Positions 19,415 to 26,187 are shown, counted from the first letter of the stretch. The stretch: 64,000 nt of DNA from an uncultured delta proteobacterium (GCA_963737265.1 CAVTRY010000014.1:320001-384000), one strand, 5' to 3'. Notes: generated by a model from the sequence alone, not told the origin. Program-made: numbers and translations.

Positions 19415-20125
19415 ATGACACTCATGCGCGGGAGAGAGCCGATGATCGACCATTCCAGAATACGTACCGGTGGAAGGCCACTTACCGCGGTTTTGCTCGC
19501 CGGCTTAGCGCTGGTGTCCTGTGCCCACAAACCCGCCGCGCCCGTGGATCCAGCGGCCGCGAACGACGGCAAGCGCATCGAACGCTTGGAAAAGGTGCGC
19601 GCTCGGGCGCTGGCCGCACCTGGTTCGGCCAGCGAGGCCGGTGCCTTCGCCTTCGAAGTGACCATGCTCTACACCCAAGGCATCGCCCAGCGCCAAAATC
19701 CCCCTCCCACCTGGGTCGACGAGGCGGTGGGCTGCCTCGATGGCGCCAAGGAGGCGCTGCCGGACGAGGCCCCCGATCTGCTAGCCCGCAAGGGCGAGCT
19801 GTTGCTGGCGGCGAGCCGCAGCGACGACGGCATCAAGGCCCTGCACGCGTCCATTGCCGCTCGCCCCACTCTGCGCGCGTTCAACCTACTAGCAAAGACC
19901 TACAGCGAACGGAAGGAGACGGCCGAAGTTGCGTCTTTGTGCAAGAAGACCCTACCCGCCATGAAGTCCGACGAGAGCCGCTACGCCTTGCTCGACGACT
20001 GCATCACGTACAGCGGCGCCGCCACCGCCGAGGCTGGCCTGCGCTGGGCCCCTGCCAAGGACGTCGCCTTCTACAAAGCACGCAAGCGCGACCTCGCGGC
20101 CCGTTCGGCGCGCGCGGCGAAGTAG
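19415..20125 (+). CDS. hypothetical TPR-like lipoprotein
   Basis: Lipobox-like LVSC; helical repeats. Confidence 0.65.
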   Translation: MTLMRGREPMIDHSRIRTGGRPLTAVLLAGLALVSCAHKPAAPVDPAAANDGKRIERLEKVRARALAAPGSASEAGAFAFEVTMLYTQGIAQRQNPPPTWVDEAVGCLDGAKEALPDEAPDLLARKGELLLAASRSDDGIKALHASIAARPTLRAFNLLAKTYSERKETAEVASLCKKTLPAMKSDESRYALLDDCITYSGAATAEAGLRWAPAKDVAFYKARKRDLAARSARAAK

Positions 20126-20230: not shown

Positions 20231-21622
20231 TCACGCCGCCGCGGCCTTCTGTTTGAGCGCGGCGGAGAATTCGCTGACTGTCTTGCGGGCGTCGCCGAAG
20301 ACCATCATGCAATTGGGCATGTAGAACAGCTCGTTTTCGATGCCGGCGAAGCCGGGGGCCATGGAGCGTTTGAGCACGAGCACGGACTTGGCCTTGTCGG
20401 CGTTAAGAATGGGCATGCCGTAGATGGGGCTGGCTTTGTTGTTGCGCGCGGCGGGATTGACCACGTCGTTGGCGCCGATGACGATGGCCACGTCGACGCG
20501 GGGAAAGTCGTCGTTGATCTGGTCCATGTCGAAGAGCTTGTCGTAGGGCACGCCGGCCTCGGCGAGCAGCACGTTCATGTGGCCGGGCATGCGGCCGGCG
20601 ACGGGGTGCACGGCGTAGCGAACGTCGATGCCGCGTTCGCCAAGCACGTCGGCCAGCTCTTTGACCGCGTGCTGGGCTTGCGACACCGCCATGCCGTAAC
20701 CGGGAACCACGACCACGCTTTCGCTGCCGGCGAGAAGCTCGGCGGCTTGATCGCTCGACACCGAGCGGACGCTGCCTTTCACGCCGGCATCCACGCTGGC
20801 CTCGACCGGCTTGCCGAACGCGCCGAACAGCACGTTGGTGATGGGGCGATTCATGGCCTTGCACATGATGATGGAAAGGATGAGGCCCGAGGCGCCGTCG
20901 AGCGTGCCGGCAATGACGAGGATCTTGTTGTCGAGGGCGAAGCCGGTGGCAGCGCCAGCCAAGCCGGCGTACGAGTTCAGAAGTGCGATCACCACCGGCA
21001 TGTCGGCCGCGCCGATGGGAATGACGAACAGCACGCCGAACATCAGTGCCAGCCCCACCATCAAATAGAAGAGCGCCGACGCCTGCGGCTGGGCGATGAC
21101 CCATGCTGTGGCGGTCACGATTCCGGCCAGCAAAAGCATATTGAAGATGTTCTGCCCCTTGAACGTCATGGGCACGCCGGGCAGCCAGCCCTGCAGCTTG
21201 GCGAACGCAACCATGCTGCCGGTGAAAGTCAGGCTGCCGAGCATGACCTCGATGCCGAGCGCGACCATGGAAGCGCTCGGCAAGTGCGCGCCTTCGGAAT
21301 AGTAGTGCGAGATGCCCACCAGCGCGGCCGCGGCGGCGCCAAAGGCGTGCGAGAGCGCCGTCCGCTGCGGCATCGCCGTCATCGGCGTCCACACCGCGAT
21401 GACGATGCCGGCCACCGTGCCGATAGCGGCACCAACAACAATCCACGTGTACGTAATGATGTGGTGATCGAGCAGCGTGCCGGCGATGGCGATGGCCATG
21501 CCGAGCTCGGCCAGGTGCATACCCTGACGCGCGCTCCGTGGCGACGACAGCAGCTTGAGCCCGAGAATGAATAGAACCGCCGCGGCGTAGTAGGCGACTT
21601 CGATGATCTCGGCCTGGTGCAC
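20231..21622 (-). CDS. pntB: NAD(P) transhydrogenase subunit beta (canonical)
   Basis: GTG at 21622; MTAMPQ..ALSH, TFTGS, IGAADMPVVIALLNSY, PGYGMAV, HPVAGRMPGHMN, GANDVVN, KRS. Confidence 0.95.
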   Translation of the reverse strand: MHQAEIIEVAYYAAAVLFILGLKLLSSPRSARQGMHLAELGMAIAIAGTLLDHHIITYTWIVVGAAIGTVAGIVIAVWTPMTAMPQRTALSHAFGAAAAALVGISHYYSEGAHLPSASMVALGIEVMLGSLTFTGSMVAFAKLQGWLPGVPMTFKGQNIFNMLLLAGIVTATAWVIAQPQASALFYLMVGLALMFGVLFVIPIGAADMPVVIALLNSYAGLAGAATGFALDNKILVIAGTLDGASGLILSIIMCKAMNRPITNVLFGAFGKPVEASVDAGVKGSVRSVSSDQAAELLAGSESVVVVPGYGMAVSQAQHAVKELADVLGERGIDVRYAVHPVAGRMPGHMNVLLAEAGVPYDKLFDMDQINDDFPRVDVAIVIGANDVVNPAARNNKASPIYGMPILNADKAKSVLVLKRSMAPGFAGIENELFYMPNCMMVFGDARKTVSEFSAALKQKAAAA

Positions 21623-21624
21623 GA

Positions 21625-21936
21625 CTAGTGACGCCCGCCTTTCGCCCCCGGACCACCGCCCTTGAACATCTTCAGCATGCGCTCGGTGATGAGAAATCCG
21701 CCCACCACGTTGCACGTGGCCGCTGCCACGGCGGTCACGCCGAGAATCGTGCGCACGGTCTCGTATTCCGATCCGGCCACGACGATGGCGCCCACCACGG
21801 AAATCGCCGAGATCGCGTTGGTTGCCGACATGAGCGGCGTGTGCAGTAGCGTCGGCACGCCGTGAATCACGTGATGACCGACGAAGGCCGCCAGCACGAA
21901 CATCATGACCGTCCAGAGAATGAATCCCGTGTCCAC
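21625..21936 (-). CDS. pntAB: NAD(P) transhydrogenase subunit alpha part 2 (membrane), canonical
   Basis: LHTPLMSATNAIS and NVVGGFLITERMLKMF motifs. Confidence 0.92.
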   Translation of the reverse strand: MDTGFILWTVMMFVLAAFVGHHVIHGVPTLLHTPLMSATNAISAISVVGAIVVAGSEYETVRTILGVTAVAAATCNVVGGFLITERMLKMFKGGGPGAKGGRH

Positions 21937-21938
21937 GG

Positions 21939-23222
21939 CTAGGCCGCCGCCGCTGCTGGGGTTTGCGCCTTGAGCTCGACGCCGATGGCTTGCAGCACCT
22001 TCTTGGCGTCGCCCAAGACCATGTTGGTTTGCGGAAGATCGAAAAGAGCGGTTCTTCACGCCCGCGGCCCCCGGCCGCAGGCTGCGCTTGATGACGAAGA
22101 CCGCGCGGGCGCGGGCAACGTCGATGAAGAGGCATGCCGAACACGGCGCTCGTGGCGTCGTTCAATACCGCGGGATTGACGATGTCGTTGGCGCCCACCA
22201 CCAGCGCCACGTCGGCATCGGCAAGCTCGGCATTGGCGGCTTCCCATTCGAGGATTTGCGCGGTCGACACCTTGGCCTCGTCGAGCAGAATGTTCATGTG
22301 CCCCGGGATCAGCCCAGCGGCCGGATGAATCGCGTAGACGACGGTGGCACCGCGACGGGAAAGCATCTTGGCGATTTCCGCCAGCGCGTGCTGGGCCTGC
22401 GCGGCCGCCATGCCGTAGCCGGGAACCAGCACCACCTTGCGCGCGTTTTCCAGCACCATGGCGCTTTCCTCGGGGCCGCAGACCTTGACGTTGTGGTAGT
22501 CGTCGCGGGCGCTGCTCGTGGCGGCCTTGCCTCTGCTGCCCAAGGCGAGGTCGAGGGGATTGCGCCCAAGCGCGGAAGCCACGATGACCGCCAAGGTCCA
22601 GCCCGCGGTGGCCATCAAGCCGCCCACCGTCACGACGATCGGGTTGCCGAGTGCAAAGCCAACCATGGCCGAGGCCAGGCCCGAAGCCGATGCGGTCAGC
22701 GCCACCACCGAGGGCTGTCCCGATCCGCGCGCGGCCGGCCCCACGGCGGCAAGCACGCCCAGCACCAGCGCGGCCAAACCGGAAGCAATGGCGAGCCCAA
22801 GCGCGGCCCCGCGTGGACCACCTGCGAGAGCGAGCGCGCCGCCCAGGGGCCAAGCTCCGTCGCTGAGAAATGCGACCGCGGCGACCAGCGCCGCGGCGAC
22901 GCCGCCAGCGGCGGCCAGCAAGGGCGCGATGCCGGCGCCCAGTTCCACCTTGCCTGCCAAGCCAACGATTAGGCCAAGCACAAGACCAGCGACAATGCCC
23001 GCGAGCGCAAGCCTTGGATTCGAGATACGCGGCCTCGACGACATGACCGGCCAGCGCCAGCATGAAGCCAAGCCCGAGCAAGGTGACCCCTCGTCGCGCC
23101 GAGCGCACGCGACACATGAGCTTGAGGCCCAGGATGAAGAAGACAGCGGACGCGATGTAGACGATGGGTACCGCGAAGTTGCCTAGCGCGTTCACTGTCG
23201 TTACGTTCATCACGACGTTCAT
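21939..23222 (-). CDS. divergent second transhydrogenase beta-like subunit with three +1 frameshifts
   Basis: N-terminal FILGLKLM...ARRG; domain III PGYGMAAAQAQH, HPAAGLIPGHMN, GANDIVN, KRS, GDAKK recovered across frames; membrane part shortened. Confidence 0.75.
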
Positions 23223-23508
23223 CGCCGCTGAGCCCTCCGCTCACGCAAAGCACGCGCCGTGCGCAGCAGGCCACCCACGATGCCCGTGGTGGCGACGGCC
23301 ACCGCACACACGCCGAGAATTGCGGGGGCGCCGTTGCCGCTGGCTCCCGACGCTGGAAGAGCGACGGCGACTGCGATGGCGGCGACCGCCCCCATGCACG
23401 TGGCGAGGGCGCCGTAGAGCGTGGGCGGAACCTTGCGAATCACGTCGAGGCCGAGAAAAACCGGCCAGGGTGAACAAGGTAGAGTGCGATGAGCAAGCCG
23501 CCGGTCAC
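23219..23508 (-). CDS. divergent second alpha-2-like membrane subunit with two +1 frameshifts
   Basis: Reconstructed ..LYLFTLAVFLGLDVIRKVPPTLYGAL..IVGG; GTG overlaps the pntA stop. Confidence 0.65.
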
Positions 23509-24664
23509 GGCGTCGCCTTGGCCGCTTCGGCGGTCGGAGCGTGGACGATTCGCCCGTTGTGCGTGAGCAAGGCGCCCTTGATGATCTCGTCGTCGGGATC
23601 GAGATTGAGATGGCCGCCCTTGAGCACGAGCAATGCCAGTTCCAGCGACGTTGCGCGCGTAAAGCGTGCTGGCATCGAGCGGACAAGGTGGACGGCAGAT
23701 TGGTGTGACCGAGGATGGTCACGCGATGTTTGACGATTTCGTGGTTCGCTTGGGTCAGCTCGCAGTTGCCACCTTGCTCGGCGGCCAGATCGACGATGAC
23801 CGAGCCGGGCCGCATGCCCCGCACCATGTCGGCGGTTACTAGGCGCGGAGCCGGTTTGCCGGGAACGAGCGCGGTCGTAATGACGACGTCGGCGGTGGCG
23901 ATGTGTTCCTTGATGACGGCCTGCTGGCGCGCCAGGAAGTCCTTGCTCATCTCCTTGGCGTAGCCGCCCTGGCCTTCGCCGGATTCCTGCGTCGGCAGGT
24001 CGATGAACTTACCGCCCAGCGATTCCACTTGCTCCTTCACCGCCGGTCGCACATCGGAAACCCACGCCACGGCGCCCAGGCGCTTGGCCGTCGCAACCGC
24101 TTGCAGACCCGCGACACCCGCGCCCATGATGACCACCTTGGCGGACGGAATGGTGCCGGCCGCGGTCATCAGCATGGGAAAATACTTGCCCAAGCGACTC
24201 GCCGCCATCAGCACCGCCTTGTAGCCTGCAATGCTCGCCTGCGACGACAGCGCGTCCATCGCCTGCGCGCGCGTGATGCGGGGAACCAGCTCCATCGCCA
24301 AGGCCGTGACCTTTCCCGCCGCCAGCTTCTTCACCATGGGCAGGTTGCGATAGGGCTGCAGGAACGAAATGACCAGGGCACCGGGTTTCAGCACCGCGGC
24401 CTCGTCCTGGCCGAGCTTCTCGTTCGCTCCAAAGGGAGCCACTTTGAATACGGCATCCGCGTTCGCCCATTCAGCCGCCAAGTCCGTGATTATGCGACCG
24501 CCGGCTCCCTCGTAGCGATCGTCGAGCAGATAGGACGCTTCGCCGGCGCCGGCTTCGACCGCAACCTCCAGCCCTTCCTTGACGAAGCGCTTGACGGTTT
24601 CCGGGGTCGCGGCCACACGCGATTCACCCGTGGCCCGTTCCTTCGCAATCAGCACCTTGAACAT
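23505..24664 (-). CDS. pntAA: NAD(P) transhydrogenase subunit alpha part 1 (NAD-binding domain I), two +1 frameshifts near the 3' end
   Basis: ESRVAATP, PRITRAQAMDALSS, GAGVAGLQA, GGYAK, GGNC; DAS.LYARN recovered after correction. Confidence 0.92.
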
Positions 24665-24816: not shown

Positions 24817-26187
24817 GTGAGCAACACAGAAGAAGCCGGCAAGCACGAGGATGTGCATTCCTCGCGCATGGGGAAGTTCATCCAAACCTATTCGGGTTTT
24901 CTTTCGAGCTTCGTCATCGGCATGGCGGGACTGGTGGCCACGTCGATCTGGCAGTACCGGCAATCGCAGACCGCGGTCAAACAAGCCGAGTCCGAACAAA
25001 AGATCGCCGCCACCAAGGCCGACAACGAGTGGCGGATCGCGCGCGCGGAAATCTTGGCTAAGAACCTCAGCGTGCTGTCCACGCAGGGGCCGAGCTCGGC
25101 CGATCAGCGCTTCGGCGTGCTGCTCTCGCTCACGCGTGGGGCGATTCTCGATCCCGAGCTGGCGGTTTCCTACGCCCTCGAGCTCGGCAAGGACAACGCC
25201 AGCTACATGCACGACGTGCTGGCCGCGACCGAGCGCAAGAACTACCAGCAACTGTCGCAGGCGTTCGCCCTGACCTGCTTGCAACGCTACGGCGTCAAAC
25301 GCGAGGCCGAGATCTGCAAGGACGACAAGCTGTCCGAACGATCGCAGGCCATCGCCGACCTCATTCACGACGAACTGGACGCGCTCGATGCTCTCGGCGA
25401 CGGCAAACCGGCTACGCTCGGGCCCTTGGCGCTGCTGCGCAACGACCGCGAGGTGCAGGCCTCGGTGGCCAAGATGGCATGGCTGTTCGAACCGTATTTG
25501 CAAGATCTCTACGAAAAGCATCAGTGGAAAGAGATCGCGCATTTTGAGTCGGTGTCGCCGGGTGCCCGATTGGTGGCGGCCATCGTGCTTGCGACCGCGC
25601 GCACGGGAGAGCTCGTGGGCAACGGCGAATCGGCGGATCTCGAAAAGTTTCATGCCGAGCGCCGCAAATGGCTGGGCGATTTCCTGCTTGGCCGAAGCTG
25701 CGATCCGGAATGCCGGGGCAAGCTGATCGACGTCATGGTGAGTGTGTACGGCGAGTCGGACGGCGACTACGACGAGACCATGCGCCGCCTGCTGCTCCTG
25801 CCGCGAGCGGAGTCCGGACCGGCGCTGGCCAAGCTTCACGGCCGACTGCTGTGGTGCCAGGTCGACAAGGAAGACCTCGATCTGTTTCGCGACCACGTGC
25901 TCGTGCCGAGCCTCGCCGAGGCCCTGGCGGGTCCCAAGCCCGATGCGGTGCTGGTCGAGGAATTGGTAGGATTGCTCGCCATGGTGCCCGATCCGACGGA
26001 CGATACTTCGCTGGTAGCTTGGAAGGCTGTGTTGGCCACCATGCAGAAGGCGGGCGAGCACTACGACCACGCCCTCGCCAAACGGCGTGCCACGGTCAAG
26101 CGCGAGCGCGCCAACCCGCCGCCGATGGTGAAGAAGGTCAGCTTCTGTGGCGCCGCCGAGGCCGCCGGCAAGGTCGAAAACCAGTAG
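24817..26187 (+). CDS. hypothetical membrane-anchored helical protein
   Basis: Long GC-biased ORF with N-terminal TM (FLSSFVIGMAGLVATSIW) and coiled segment; start uncertain. Confidence 0.7.
   Translation: MSNTEEAGKHEDVHSSRMGKFIQTYSGFLSSFVIGMAGLVATSIWQYRQSQTAVKQAESEQKIAATKADNEWRIARAEILAKNLSVLSTQGPSSADQRFGVLLSLTRGAILDPELAVSYALELGKDNASYMHDVLAATERKNYQQLSQAFALTCLQRYGVKREAEICKDDKLSERSQAIADLIHDELDALDALGDGKPATLGPLALLRNDREVQASVAKMAWLFEPYLQDLYEKHQWKEIAHFESVSPGARLVAAIVLATARTGELVGNGESADLEKFHAERRKWLGDFLLGRSCDPECRGKLIDVMVSVYGESDGDYDETMRRLLLLPRAESGPALAKLHGRLLWCQVDKEDLDLFRDHVLVPSLAEALAGPKPDAVLVEELVGLLAMVPDPTDDTSLVAWKAVLATMQKAGEHYDHALAKRRATVKRERANPPPMVKKVSFCGAAEAAGKVENQ

Follow-up and report, generated by a model that had tools for sequence, protein, structure and literature searches.

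The window analyzed here, a stretch of 64,000 nucleotides from an uncultured delta proteobacterium (GCA_963737265.1, CAVTRY010000014.1:320001-384000), carries a five-gene pnt (NAD(P) transhydrogenase) operon in which an ordinary alpha1, alpha2, and beta set is accompanied by a second, degenerate pair of membrane subunits, termed alpha2' and beta', that have lost the residues of the proton channel. Three-frame translation of the minus strand from 24800 to 20150 gave the following gene set, with positions counted from the first letter of the window:

24664-23505 (stop included), minus strand: alpha1 (pntAA), the NAD(H)-binding domain I (dI) subunit, 385 residues after two spurious bases are ignored

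23508-23219, minus strand: alpha2', a divergent three-helix PntAB-like membrane subunit, 95 residues, GTG start

23222-21939, minus strand: beta', a degenerate PntB paralogue with seven predicted membrane helices followed by domain III (dIII), 426 residues

21936-21625, minus strand: alpha2 (pntAB), canonical, 103 residues, HTPLMS.TN motif intact

21622-20231, minus strand: beta (pntB), canonical, 463 residues, aligning over its full length to the PntB of Thermus thermophilus and Escherichia coli

All five genes have a valid start and stop codon and are closely packed, with 4-nucleotide overlaps at the alpha1/alpha2' and alpha2'/beta' junctions (the GTG start of alpha2' overlapping the alpha1 stop) and 2-nucleotide gaps at the beta'/alpha2 and alpha2/beta junctions. 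An open reading frame of 946 residues at 20231-23071 is an artifact of an open alternative frame in GC-rich DNA. Beyond the operon, no other PntB-family or PntA-type gene is present in this genome (G000), and alpha1 is single-copy.

The canonical beta protein aligns end-to-end with the solved chains of T. thermophilus (4O9U_B, E-value 1e-124) and E. coli (9L76_C, E-value 2e-111), scores 596.6 bits against PF02233, and places the His of ALSH and the motifs TFTGS, GAADMP, and LLNSY at E. coli His91, Ser139, Asp213, and Asn222; this alignment fixes the E. coli residue numbering used throughout. Canonical alpha2 aligns over its full length to T. thermophilus alpha2 (E-value 9e-18) and scores 111.7 bits against PF12769. 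It carries Ser at the position of Thermus His42, as expected for an E. coli-type enzyme, in which the channel His is on beta. The alpha1 orthologue in the related genome G010 matches PF05222 and PF01262 and scores 440 bits against NF006942 (cut-off 383). Once the two spurious alpha1 bases are ignored, alpha1, alpha2, and beta of the window all give full-length matches and hold all channel, hydride-site, and NADP-site residues.

For the beta' protein, conversely, alignment to these two solved chains is confined to the last membrane helices and dIII (E-value 1.8e-60). Against PF02233 the piece read in the window scores 216 bits and the G010 orthologue 308.7 bits in two stretches (cut-off 31.7), and beta' falls well under the cut-off of the NCBIfam equivalog NF006974 (231.9 vs. 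689 bits); NCBIfam holds no model for beta' itself. Between transmembrane helices TM9 and TM13, a net ∼40-65 residues are missing, the TFTGS helix included, and by alignment the TM10-TM12 region is represented by a single helix. The AlphaFold2 model (20-row alignment; predicted local distance difference test, pLDDT, 72.8) comprises seven membrane helices followed by dIII, compared with the nine of PntB (TM6-TM14), and the odd number of helices would leave dIII on the cytoplasmic side. The modeled dIII superposes on solved dIII structures with a TM-score of ∼0.9 and a root-mean-square deviation of 1.2-2.5 Å (Foldseek). In beta' of the window, residues 91, 213, and 222 are Ala, Gly, and Ala, respectively, and TFTGS falls within a deletion; in dIII, PGYG, GHMN, GAND, and KRS are retained and Arg350 is replaced by Leu. 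A comparison of 20 canonical beta sequences with the 17-member beta' clade extended these observations as follows:

Position 91: His or Asn in 20/20 canonical; Ala, Pro, Gly, or Phe in 17/17 beta'

Ser139: kept in canonical; helix deleted or not alignable in beta'

Position 213: Asp in canonical; acidic in 0/17 beta'

Asn222: kept in canonical; lost in 15/17 beta', this genus included, and retained in two basal lineages

Arg350: kept in 20/20 canonical; lost in 16/17 beta' and kept in G008

Position 431: aromatic in 20/20 canonical; lost in 15/17 beta', with Phe431 in two basal lineages

Position 360: Ala in 19 and Gly in 1 canonical; Asp in 17/17 beta'

Lys424, Arg425, Asp392, His354, Asn356, and Gly430: kept in canonical; kept in 17/17 beta'

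Position 426: Ser in 17 and Gly in 3 canonical; Ser or Thr in 17/17 beta'

Tyr315 and His345 also vary in the beta' of other genera, and the GYG fingerprint is retained in that of this genus. Arg350 and the aromatic residue at position 431 (Tyr431) presumably flank the nicotinamide. Judged by these residues, the beta' head should still bind NADP(H) through its Lys-Arg-Ser 2'-phosphate site. At the start of dIII, Tyr241, Cys247, Glu250, and Glu251 are invariant in beta' alone (27 sequences).

The partner subunit is altered in a parallel manner. Against PF12769, alpha2' scores 42.5 bits for the window piece and 45.7 bits for the G010 orthologue (cut-off 26.2), compared with 109.7 bits for canonical alpha2. 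The HTPLMS..N motif is lost in all 12 alpha2' sequences, with the first His kept in three and the Asn in one. The position of Thermus His42 is Ala in 11 of the 12 and Asn in the other, so that beta' and alpha2' together offer a protonatable His neither at beta position 91, as in the E. coli type, nor at alpha2 position 42 in combination with Asn at beta 91, as in the Thermus type. At the end of the first helix, Asp (12/12) and Arg (11/12) occupy the positions of HH and H in canonical alpha2. Much of this anatomy had been proposed in an earlier note made by manual alignment, and it withstood alignment to the solved chains and comparison of 17 beta' sequences: the order pntA1-alpha2'-beta'-alpha2-beta and its tight coupling agree with the coordinates, overlaps, and gaps given above, the four canonical beta motifs lie where they were placed, and in beta', where the note read PLLA, GSGQP, and LTASA, the channel residues are indeed missing. 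The note put the membrane-domain loss at about 50 residues including TFTGS, and it described a recognizable NADP-binding domain III with GRMP changed to GLIP; this dIII is retained, with Leu in place of Arg350. In alpha2', for which it recorded the loss of LHTPLMS.TNAIS, the HTPLMS..N motif is lost in 12 of 12 sequences.

As assembled, the window does not encode three of these proteins in single frames. The reading frame changes twice near the C-terminus of alpha1, twice in alpha2', and three times in beta', with canonical alpha2 and beta clean. Alignment of the operon DNA traces these changes to seven single-base insertions, in alpha1 (∼23683 and ∼23646), alpha2' (∼23477 and ∼23462), and beta' (∼23021, ∼22130, and ∼22049), that are private to this assembly and absent in five same-genus genomes. 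They cluster within 1.63 kb (22049-23683), and the remainder of the operon is clean. None of the seven is present in any public sequencing run compared, in which six of the insertion sites were covered and the site at ∼23021 by no public contig. Run X1 (soil contigs), considered the same strain as the window because seven of its eight listed pieces carry no other differing letters, and possibly the source sample, has no extra base at 22050, 22126, or 23644. In runs X2 and X3 (peat), which are 90-99% alike, it is missing at 22050, 22126, 23456, 23478, 23644, and 23680, and in the RNA run X20 at 22126. With the seven bases removed in silico, the frames stay open for 385, 95, and 426 residues, and over 421 residues the corrected beta' matches P0022, an intact protein in the database, with 90% identity and no gaps.

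Since the insertions are private to the assembly and six of the seven are absent in public contigs, alpha1, alpha2', and beta' are regarded as intact genes and not as decaying ones; for the same reasons, and given that the dropped bases restore open frames, genuine frameshifts and pseudogenes were rejected as an explanation. The earlier note proposed correcting these indels without recognizing them as errors of the assembly. Gene calls on such metagenome-assembled genomes of few contigs will split or fuse genes in this region. Among the relatives, single frame breaks occur elsewhere in alpha2' of G002 and in beta' of G001.

The five-gene arrangement extends well beyond this genome. Orthologues of beta' (61-73% identity) are found in eight of 12 further genomes of the genus, and in all eight a canonical beta follows ∼1.9 kb downstream; the remaining four (completeness 74-94%) yielded no match to PntB of any kind. 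Among 401 genomes sampled from the class, a beta' profile was matched over its full length in 13, all in the Myxococcota-like family of the window and spread over six genera, and all 13 also encode canonical beta; G008 brings the carriers to 14. Two unpublished genomes (G339 and G370) are counted as non-carriers in this tally and in the tally of canonical betas at least 70% identical given below, and no other claim rests on them. All five genes are single open frames in G010, G008, and G012, the same five-gene order is seen in G016, G017, G023, and G056, and in G240 the four membrane genes lie together with alpha1 on another contig. In five of five other carriers checked, alpha1 is single-copy.

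Metagenomes contribute a further 21 loci with beta' identified by residue pattern, 14 of which show alpha1 and alpha2' upstream. Downstream, 16 continue into canonical beta, three reach canonical alpha2 before the contig ends, and two end inside beta'; as far as the contigs reach, none of the 21 shows anything but the canonical pair. At another 52 metagenome loci, betas of 470 residues were considered as beta'-like and rejected, as they possess Asn or His at 91, Ser139, Asp213, Asn222, Arg350, Ala360, and Tyr or Phe at 431, and where neighbors are visible these loci have the plain alpha1-alpha2-beta order, except L105 and L107. The layout of the latter two contigs is also unusual, in that alpha1 and beta are followed by another copy of alpha1 and, after it, by a short dIII-like open reading frame. 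In a library of 1.84 billion representative proteins, 7497 match the beta' profile, and among the best 150 of these matches there are only ∼8 full-length clusters of the beta' kind.

The alpha2'/beta' pair is under purifying selection. Ratios of nonsynonymous to synonymous substitution rates (dN/dS) are 0.15-0.29 for beta' and 0.13-0.35 for alpha2' (six pairs each), compared with 0.08-0.17 for alpha1, 0.10-0.19 for alpha2, and 0.07-0.17 for beta (10 pairs each), and both domains of beta' are constrained. The earlier note had suggested a search for the five-gene layout in other genomes and a dN/dS estimate for beta', reasoning that absence or neutral decay in relatives would speak against a functional pair; the layout recurs in relatives and metagenomes, and selection on beta' is purifying. 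In X20, a permafrost metatranscriptome of a related strain, two contigs with six other letters each lie on beta' at 22051-22314.

Phylogenetically, beta' forms one clade (Shimodaira-Hasegawa-like approximate likelihood ratio test, SH-aLRT, 99) outside all sampled canonical PntB, and the canonical betas of the operon form their own clade (98) nested deep among ordinary PntB. A recent duplication of the operon's own beta within the family was rejected on the basis of this placement, which long-branch effects may nevertheless influence. For genomes present in both, the branching of the beta' and canonical-beta clades is broadly alike, which indicates that the two have traveled together. Canonical betas at least 70% identical to that of G010 were found only in beta' carriers (12/12; in G005 the contig ends within the gene), and the best match after these reaches 63%. 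Five genomes of the same family that lack beta' (G013, G022, G014, G020, and G019; loci L108-L112) have a different type of PntB, scoring 440-518 on the canonical profile vs. 867-957; in these five, the notion that beta'-lacking genera simply carry the same operon minus the pair therefore does not hold, and the five-gene unit seems to have been gained or lost together.

The closest relatives of the operon's canonical beta (62-63% identity) are found in the three-gene operons of G044, G055, and P0035, including L113 (G044:C282, 2317-5682, plus strand) and L114 (G055:C205, 3729-6038, minus strand), where a second, very divergent dIII is fused to the C-terminus of beta. This fused domain was rejected as the source of the beta' dIII, as it forms a separate long branch in a tree of dIII alone. 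The dIII of P0053 (469 residues), conversely, groups with beta' (SH-aLRT 98). P0053 is a full-length PntB-like protein that keeps Ser139, Asn222, and Arg350 and has Glu at 213 and Ser at 91, and it may represent an intermediate form.

The five pnt genes constitute a self-contained unit, since the genes that flank them lie on the other strand:

19415-20125, strand opposite to the pnt genes: protein without a family match

24850-26187, strand opposite to the pnt genes: protein without a family match

Farther out are genes for a steroid-reductase-like protein, SpoVR, an FAD oxidase, and an adenosine-deaminase-like protein. A promoter and terminator scan of the locus returned no more matches than shuffled sequence.

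Transhydrogenase is described as a homodimer whose protomers work in anti-phase, with one dIII turned toward dI, where hydride is transferred, and the other toward the membrane domain, where nucleotides are exchanged in a proton-linked manner, and the need for both halves to be active is still debated from engineered and structural data. The enzyme is a dimer in which domain II (dII) dimerizes via TM2-TM2 contact, TM2 being located in alpha2. The dI dimer (dI2) binds one dIII with a dissociation constant below 60 nM, whereas its affinity for a second is roughly a thousand times lower (∼1e-5 M), because two face-up heads would clash; NADPH binding is described as detaching dIII from dII (PMC5742237; PMC13635403). 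The pore is lined by His91, Asn222, and Asn458 (PMC13635403), and a salt bridge connects Asp213 with the dII-dIII linker (PMC5742237).

Against this background, we tentatively favor, at a little under an even chance, a reading in which alpha2'beta' forms a non-pumping pseudo-protomer that would take one half of the dimer and share the dI dimer with the canonical half. In this reading the operon encodes a three-polypeptide, proton-translocating NAD(P) transhydrogenase together with a translationally coupled degenerate pair. The membrane part of the pseudo-protomer, predicted to comprise 3 + 7 helices, lacks a protonatable His, the TM10 that bears Ser139, and Asp213, and in this genus Asn222 as well; alpha2'beta' would pair with canonical alpha2-beta beneath a single alpha1 dimer through the TM2-TM2 contact, and the canonical half alone would pump protons and transfer hydride. 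Because the dI dimer holds one dIII tightly, the dIII of beta' (dIII') would be either parked on its plugged membrane domain or held, loaded with NADPH, in the dI cleft, and could thereby act as a fixed partner or as an NADPH-sensitive brake or competitor at the dI site. A stricter version, an obligate asymmetric heterodimer (alpha1)2(alpha2-beta)(alpha2'-beta') in which the head of the dead half competes for the tight dI site and the NADPH/NADP+ ratio gates the pump, is possible and on balance doubtful.

An association of the pair with the canonical enzyme is favored, although not decisively, by the single-copy alpha1, the strict co-occurrence, and a predicted complex. A model of (alpha1)2 with dIII' scored 0.72, compared with 0.00 for the best control, a mark reached by 116 of 157 solved complexes and two of 215 mismatched pairs; the runs agreed on at least 94% of contacts with partner pLDDT of at least 88, and the nucleotide face of dIII' sits in the dI cleft of the model. 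The residues argue, in addition, that alpha2'beta' cannot be an ordinary second pump, since it has no protonatable residue, TM10, or Asp213 and its nicotinamide pocket is changed, and an ordinary catalytic second enzyme is disfavored by the loss of Arg350 and of the aromatic residue at 431. Of the three proposals in the earlier note, namely a heterodimer with one non-pumping protomer, an uncoupled transhydrogenase, or an NADP(H)-sensing subunit, those that involve association with the canonical enzyme are favored, and the three are not decisively separated.

Several considerations weigh against a pseudo-protomer. As complexes of the dI2-dIII kind have been solved, the docking score may reflect likeness or memory alone, and it is to be taken as retained likeness and not as binding. 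Random mixing of subunits would also yield dead homodimers, and the adjacency of alpha2' to beta' and of alpha2 to beta would, as a matter of gene order, fit two separate complexes equally well. Arg350 survives in G008, as do Asn222 and Phe431 in the two basal lineages, so that the loss of catalysis may be partial or lineage-specific, and the dN/dS values of the most distant pairs are rough because dS is 1.2-1.9, near saturation. As to expression, the X20 contigs give a weak hint of beta' transcription. The roles presumed here for Arg350 and Tyr431 are those of the older dIII literature and were not confirmed in the literature consulted, PMC13635403 included.

Two separate complexes are the premise of the rival that survives best, an unlikely one nonetheless, in which alpha2'beta' together with alpha1 would form its own homodimeric, non-pumping transhydrogenase that equilibrates NADH and NADPH without recourse to the proton gradient. 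It draws on the adjacency and start/stop coupling of alpha2' and beta' as a unit of their own, on the retention in dIII' of Asp392, the GYG fingerprint (this genus), and the Lys-Arg-Ser site, and on the modeled docking of dIII' on dI2; the loss of lid residues might even speed NADP(H) exchange without proton-driven gating. Such an enzyme is, however, hard to reconcile with the loss of Arg350 in 16 and of the aromatic 431 in 15 of 17 sequences and the variability of Tyr315 and His345 in other genera, it would create a futile cycle if co-transcribed with the pump, and no case of alpha2'beta' apart from the canonical pair came to light in the genomes and metagenome loci surveyed.

Slightly less probable still is that alpha2'beta' serves as a non-enzymatic accessory that replaces no protomer, be it a membrane-anchored NADP(H) sensor, an assembly or stabilizing factor, or an adaptor to another complex. 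The conservation of NADP(H)-binding determinants alongside degenerate catalytic and channel ones speaks for such a role, and the invariants peculiar to beta' (Cys247, Glu250, Glu251, and Asp360) suggest a new constraint. The full architecture of a protomer is nevertheless kept, with counterparts of alpha2 and of beta and a dIII still joined by its linker, the dI-facing surface would still dock according to the model, and no gene for a third-party partner is conserved in the operon, the neighbors being on the other strand.

It is very improbable that alpha2' and beta' still translocate an ion through different residues as a divergent and coupled second transhydrogenase; the acidic and basic residues at the end of the first alpha2' helix and the Asn222 of the basal lineages could be read in this way, but position 91 is neither His nor Asn, the TM10-12 region is reduced to one helix, and Asp213, which forms the linker salt bridge (PMC5742237), is lost in 17 of 17. 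Finally, that the extra pair and the alpha1 C-terminus are a decaying duplicate with genuine frameshifts can be dismissed as hardly credible despite the clustering of the seven insertions, since three of the six that are absent in public contigs are absent in contigs otherwise identical to the window, the out-of-frame pieces still encode conserved protein, the sole alpha1 gene would also be destroyed, and orthologues elsewhere are intact and under selection.

Six genera and many metagenome lineages have preserved a pair that seems unable to conduct protons or to hold the nicotinamide in the usual manner, though seemingly still capable of NADP(H) binding and of docking on dI, and if it assembles with the canonical half it would provide a ready-made asymmetric enzyme with which to probe the alternating-site model, possibly with a built-in redox sensor; were the obligate heterodimer true, alternation between two active protomers would be dispensable for coupled transhydrogenation. 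On a practical level, databases name beta' "NAD(P) transhydrogenase subunit beta," and metabolic inference from gene copies would consequently count a second pump where there is probably none.

Within the full-text literature, where coverage of subscription journals is thin, no degenerate pair of pnt subunits and no five-gene pnt operon was found. The nearest counterpart is the three-polypeptide enzyme of T. thermophilus (4O9U, 4O93, 5UNI, and 4J16), which has the same division into alpha1, alpha2, and beta as the window; its three genes specify a homodimer with two identical protomers, whereas the window adds between alpha1 and alpha2 a degenerate pair without the channel residues and two of the membrane helices. 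The PntAB of E. coli (9L76 and related; PMC13635403) likewise has the His91, Ser139, Asp213, and Asn222 seen in canonical beta of the window, but its alpha1 and alpha2 are fused and it has no paralogous pair, and at the same four positions beta' of the window has Ala, a deletion, Gly, and Ala. Some PntB proteins (P0030, P0032, P0033, P0036, P0040, P0042, P0046, P0047, P0050, and P0054) carry two to four tandem dIII per chain. These tandem forms also possess extra dIII heads, though fused to one beta chain, whereas the beta' head is borne by a separate, reduced membrane anchor that comes with an alpha2-like partner of its own. In heterodimeric ABC exporters with one non-catalytic ATP site, a paralogue that binds nucleotide and has lost catalysis is co-encoded with an active partner. 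The analogy is one of logic only, as the fold and chemistry are unrelated, and it would apply to the window insofar as the putative heterodimer forms there.

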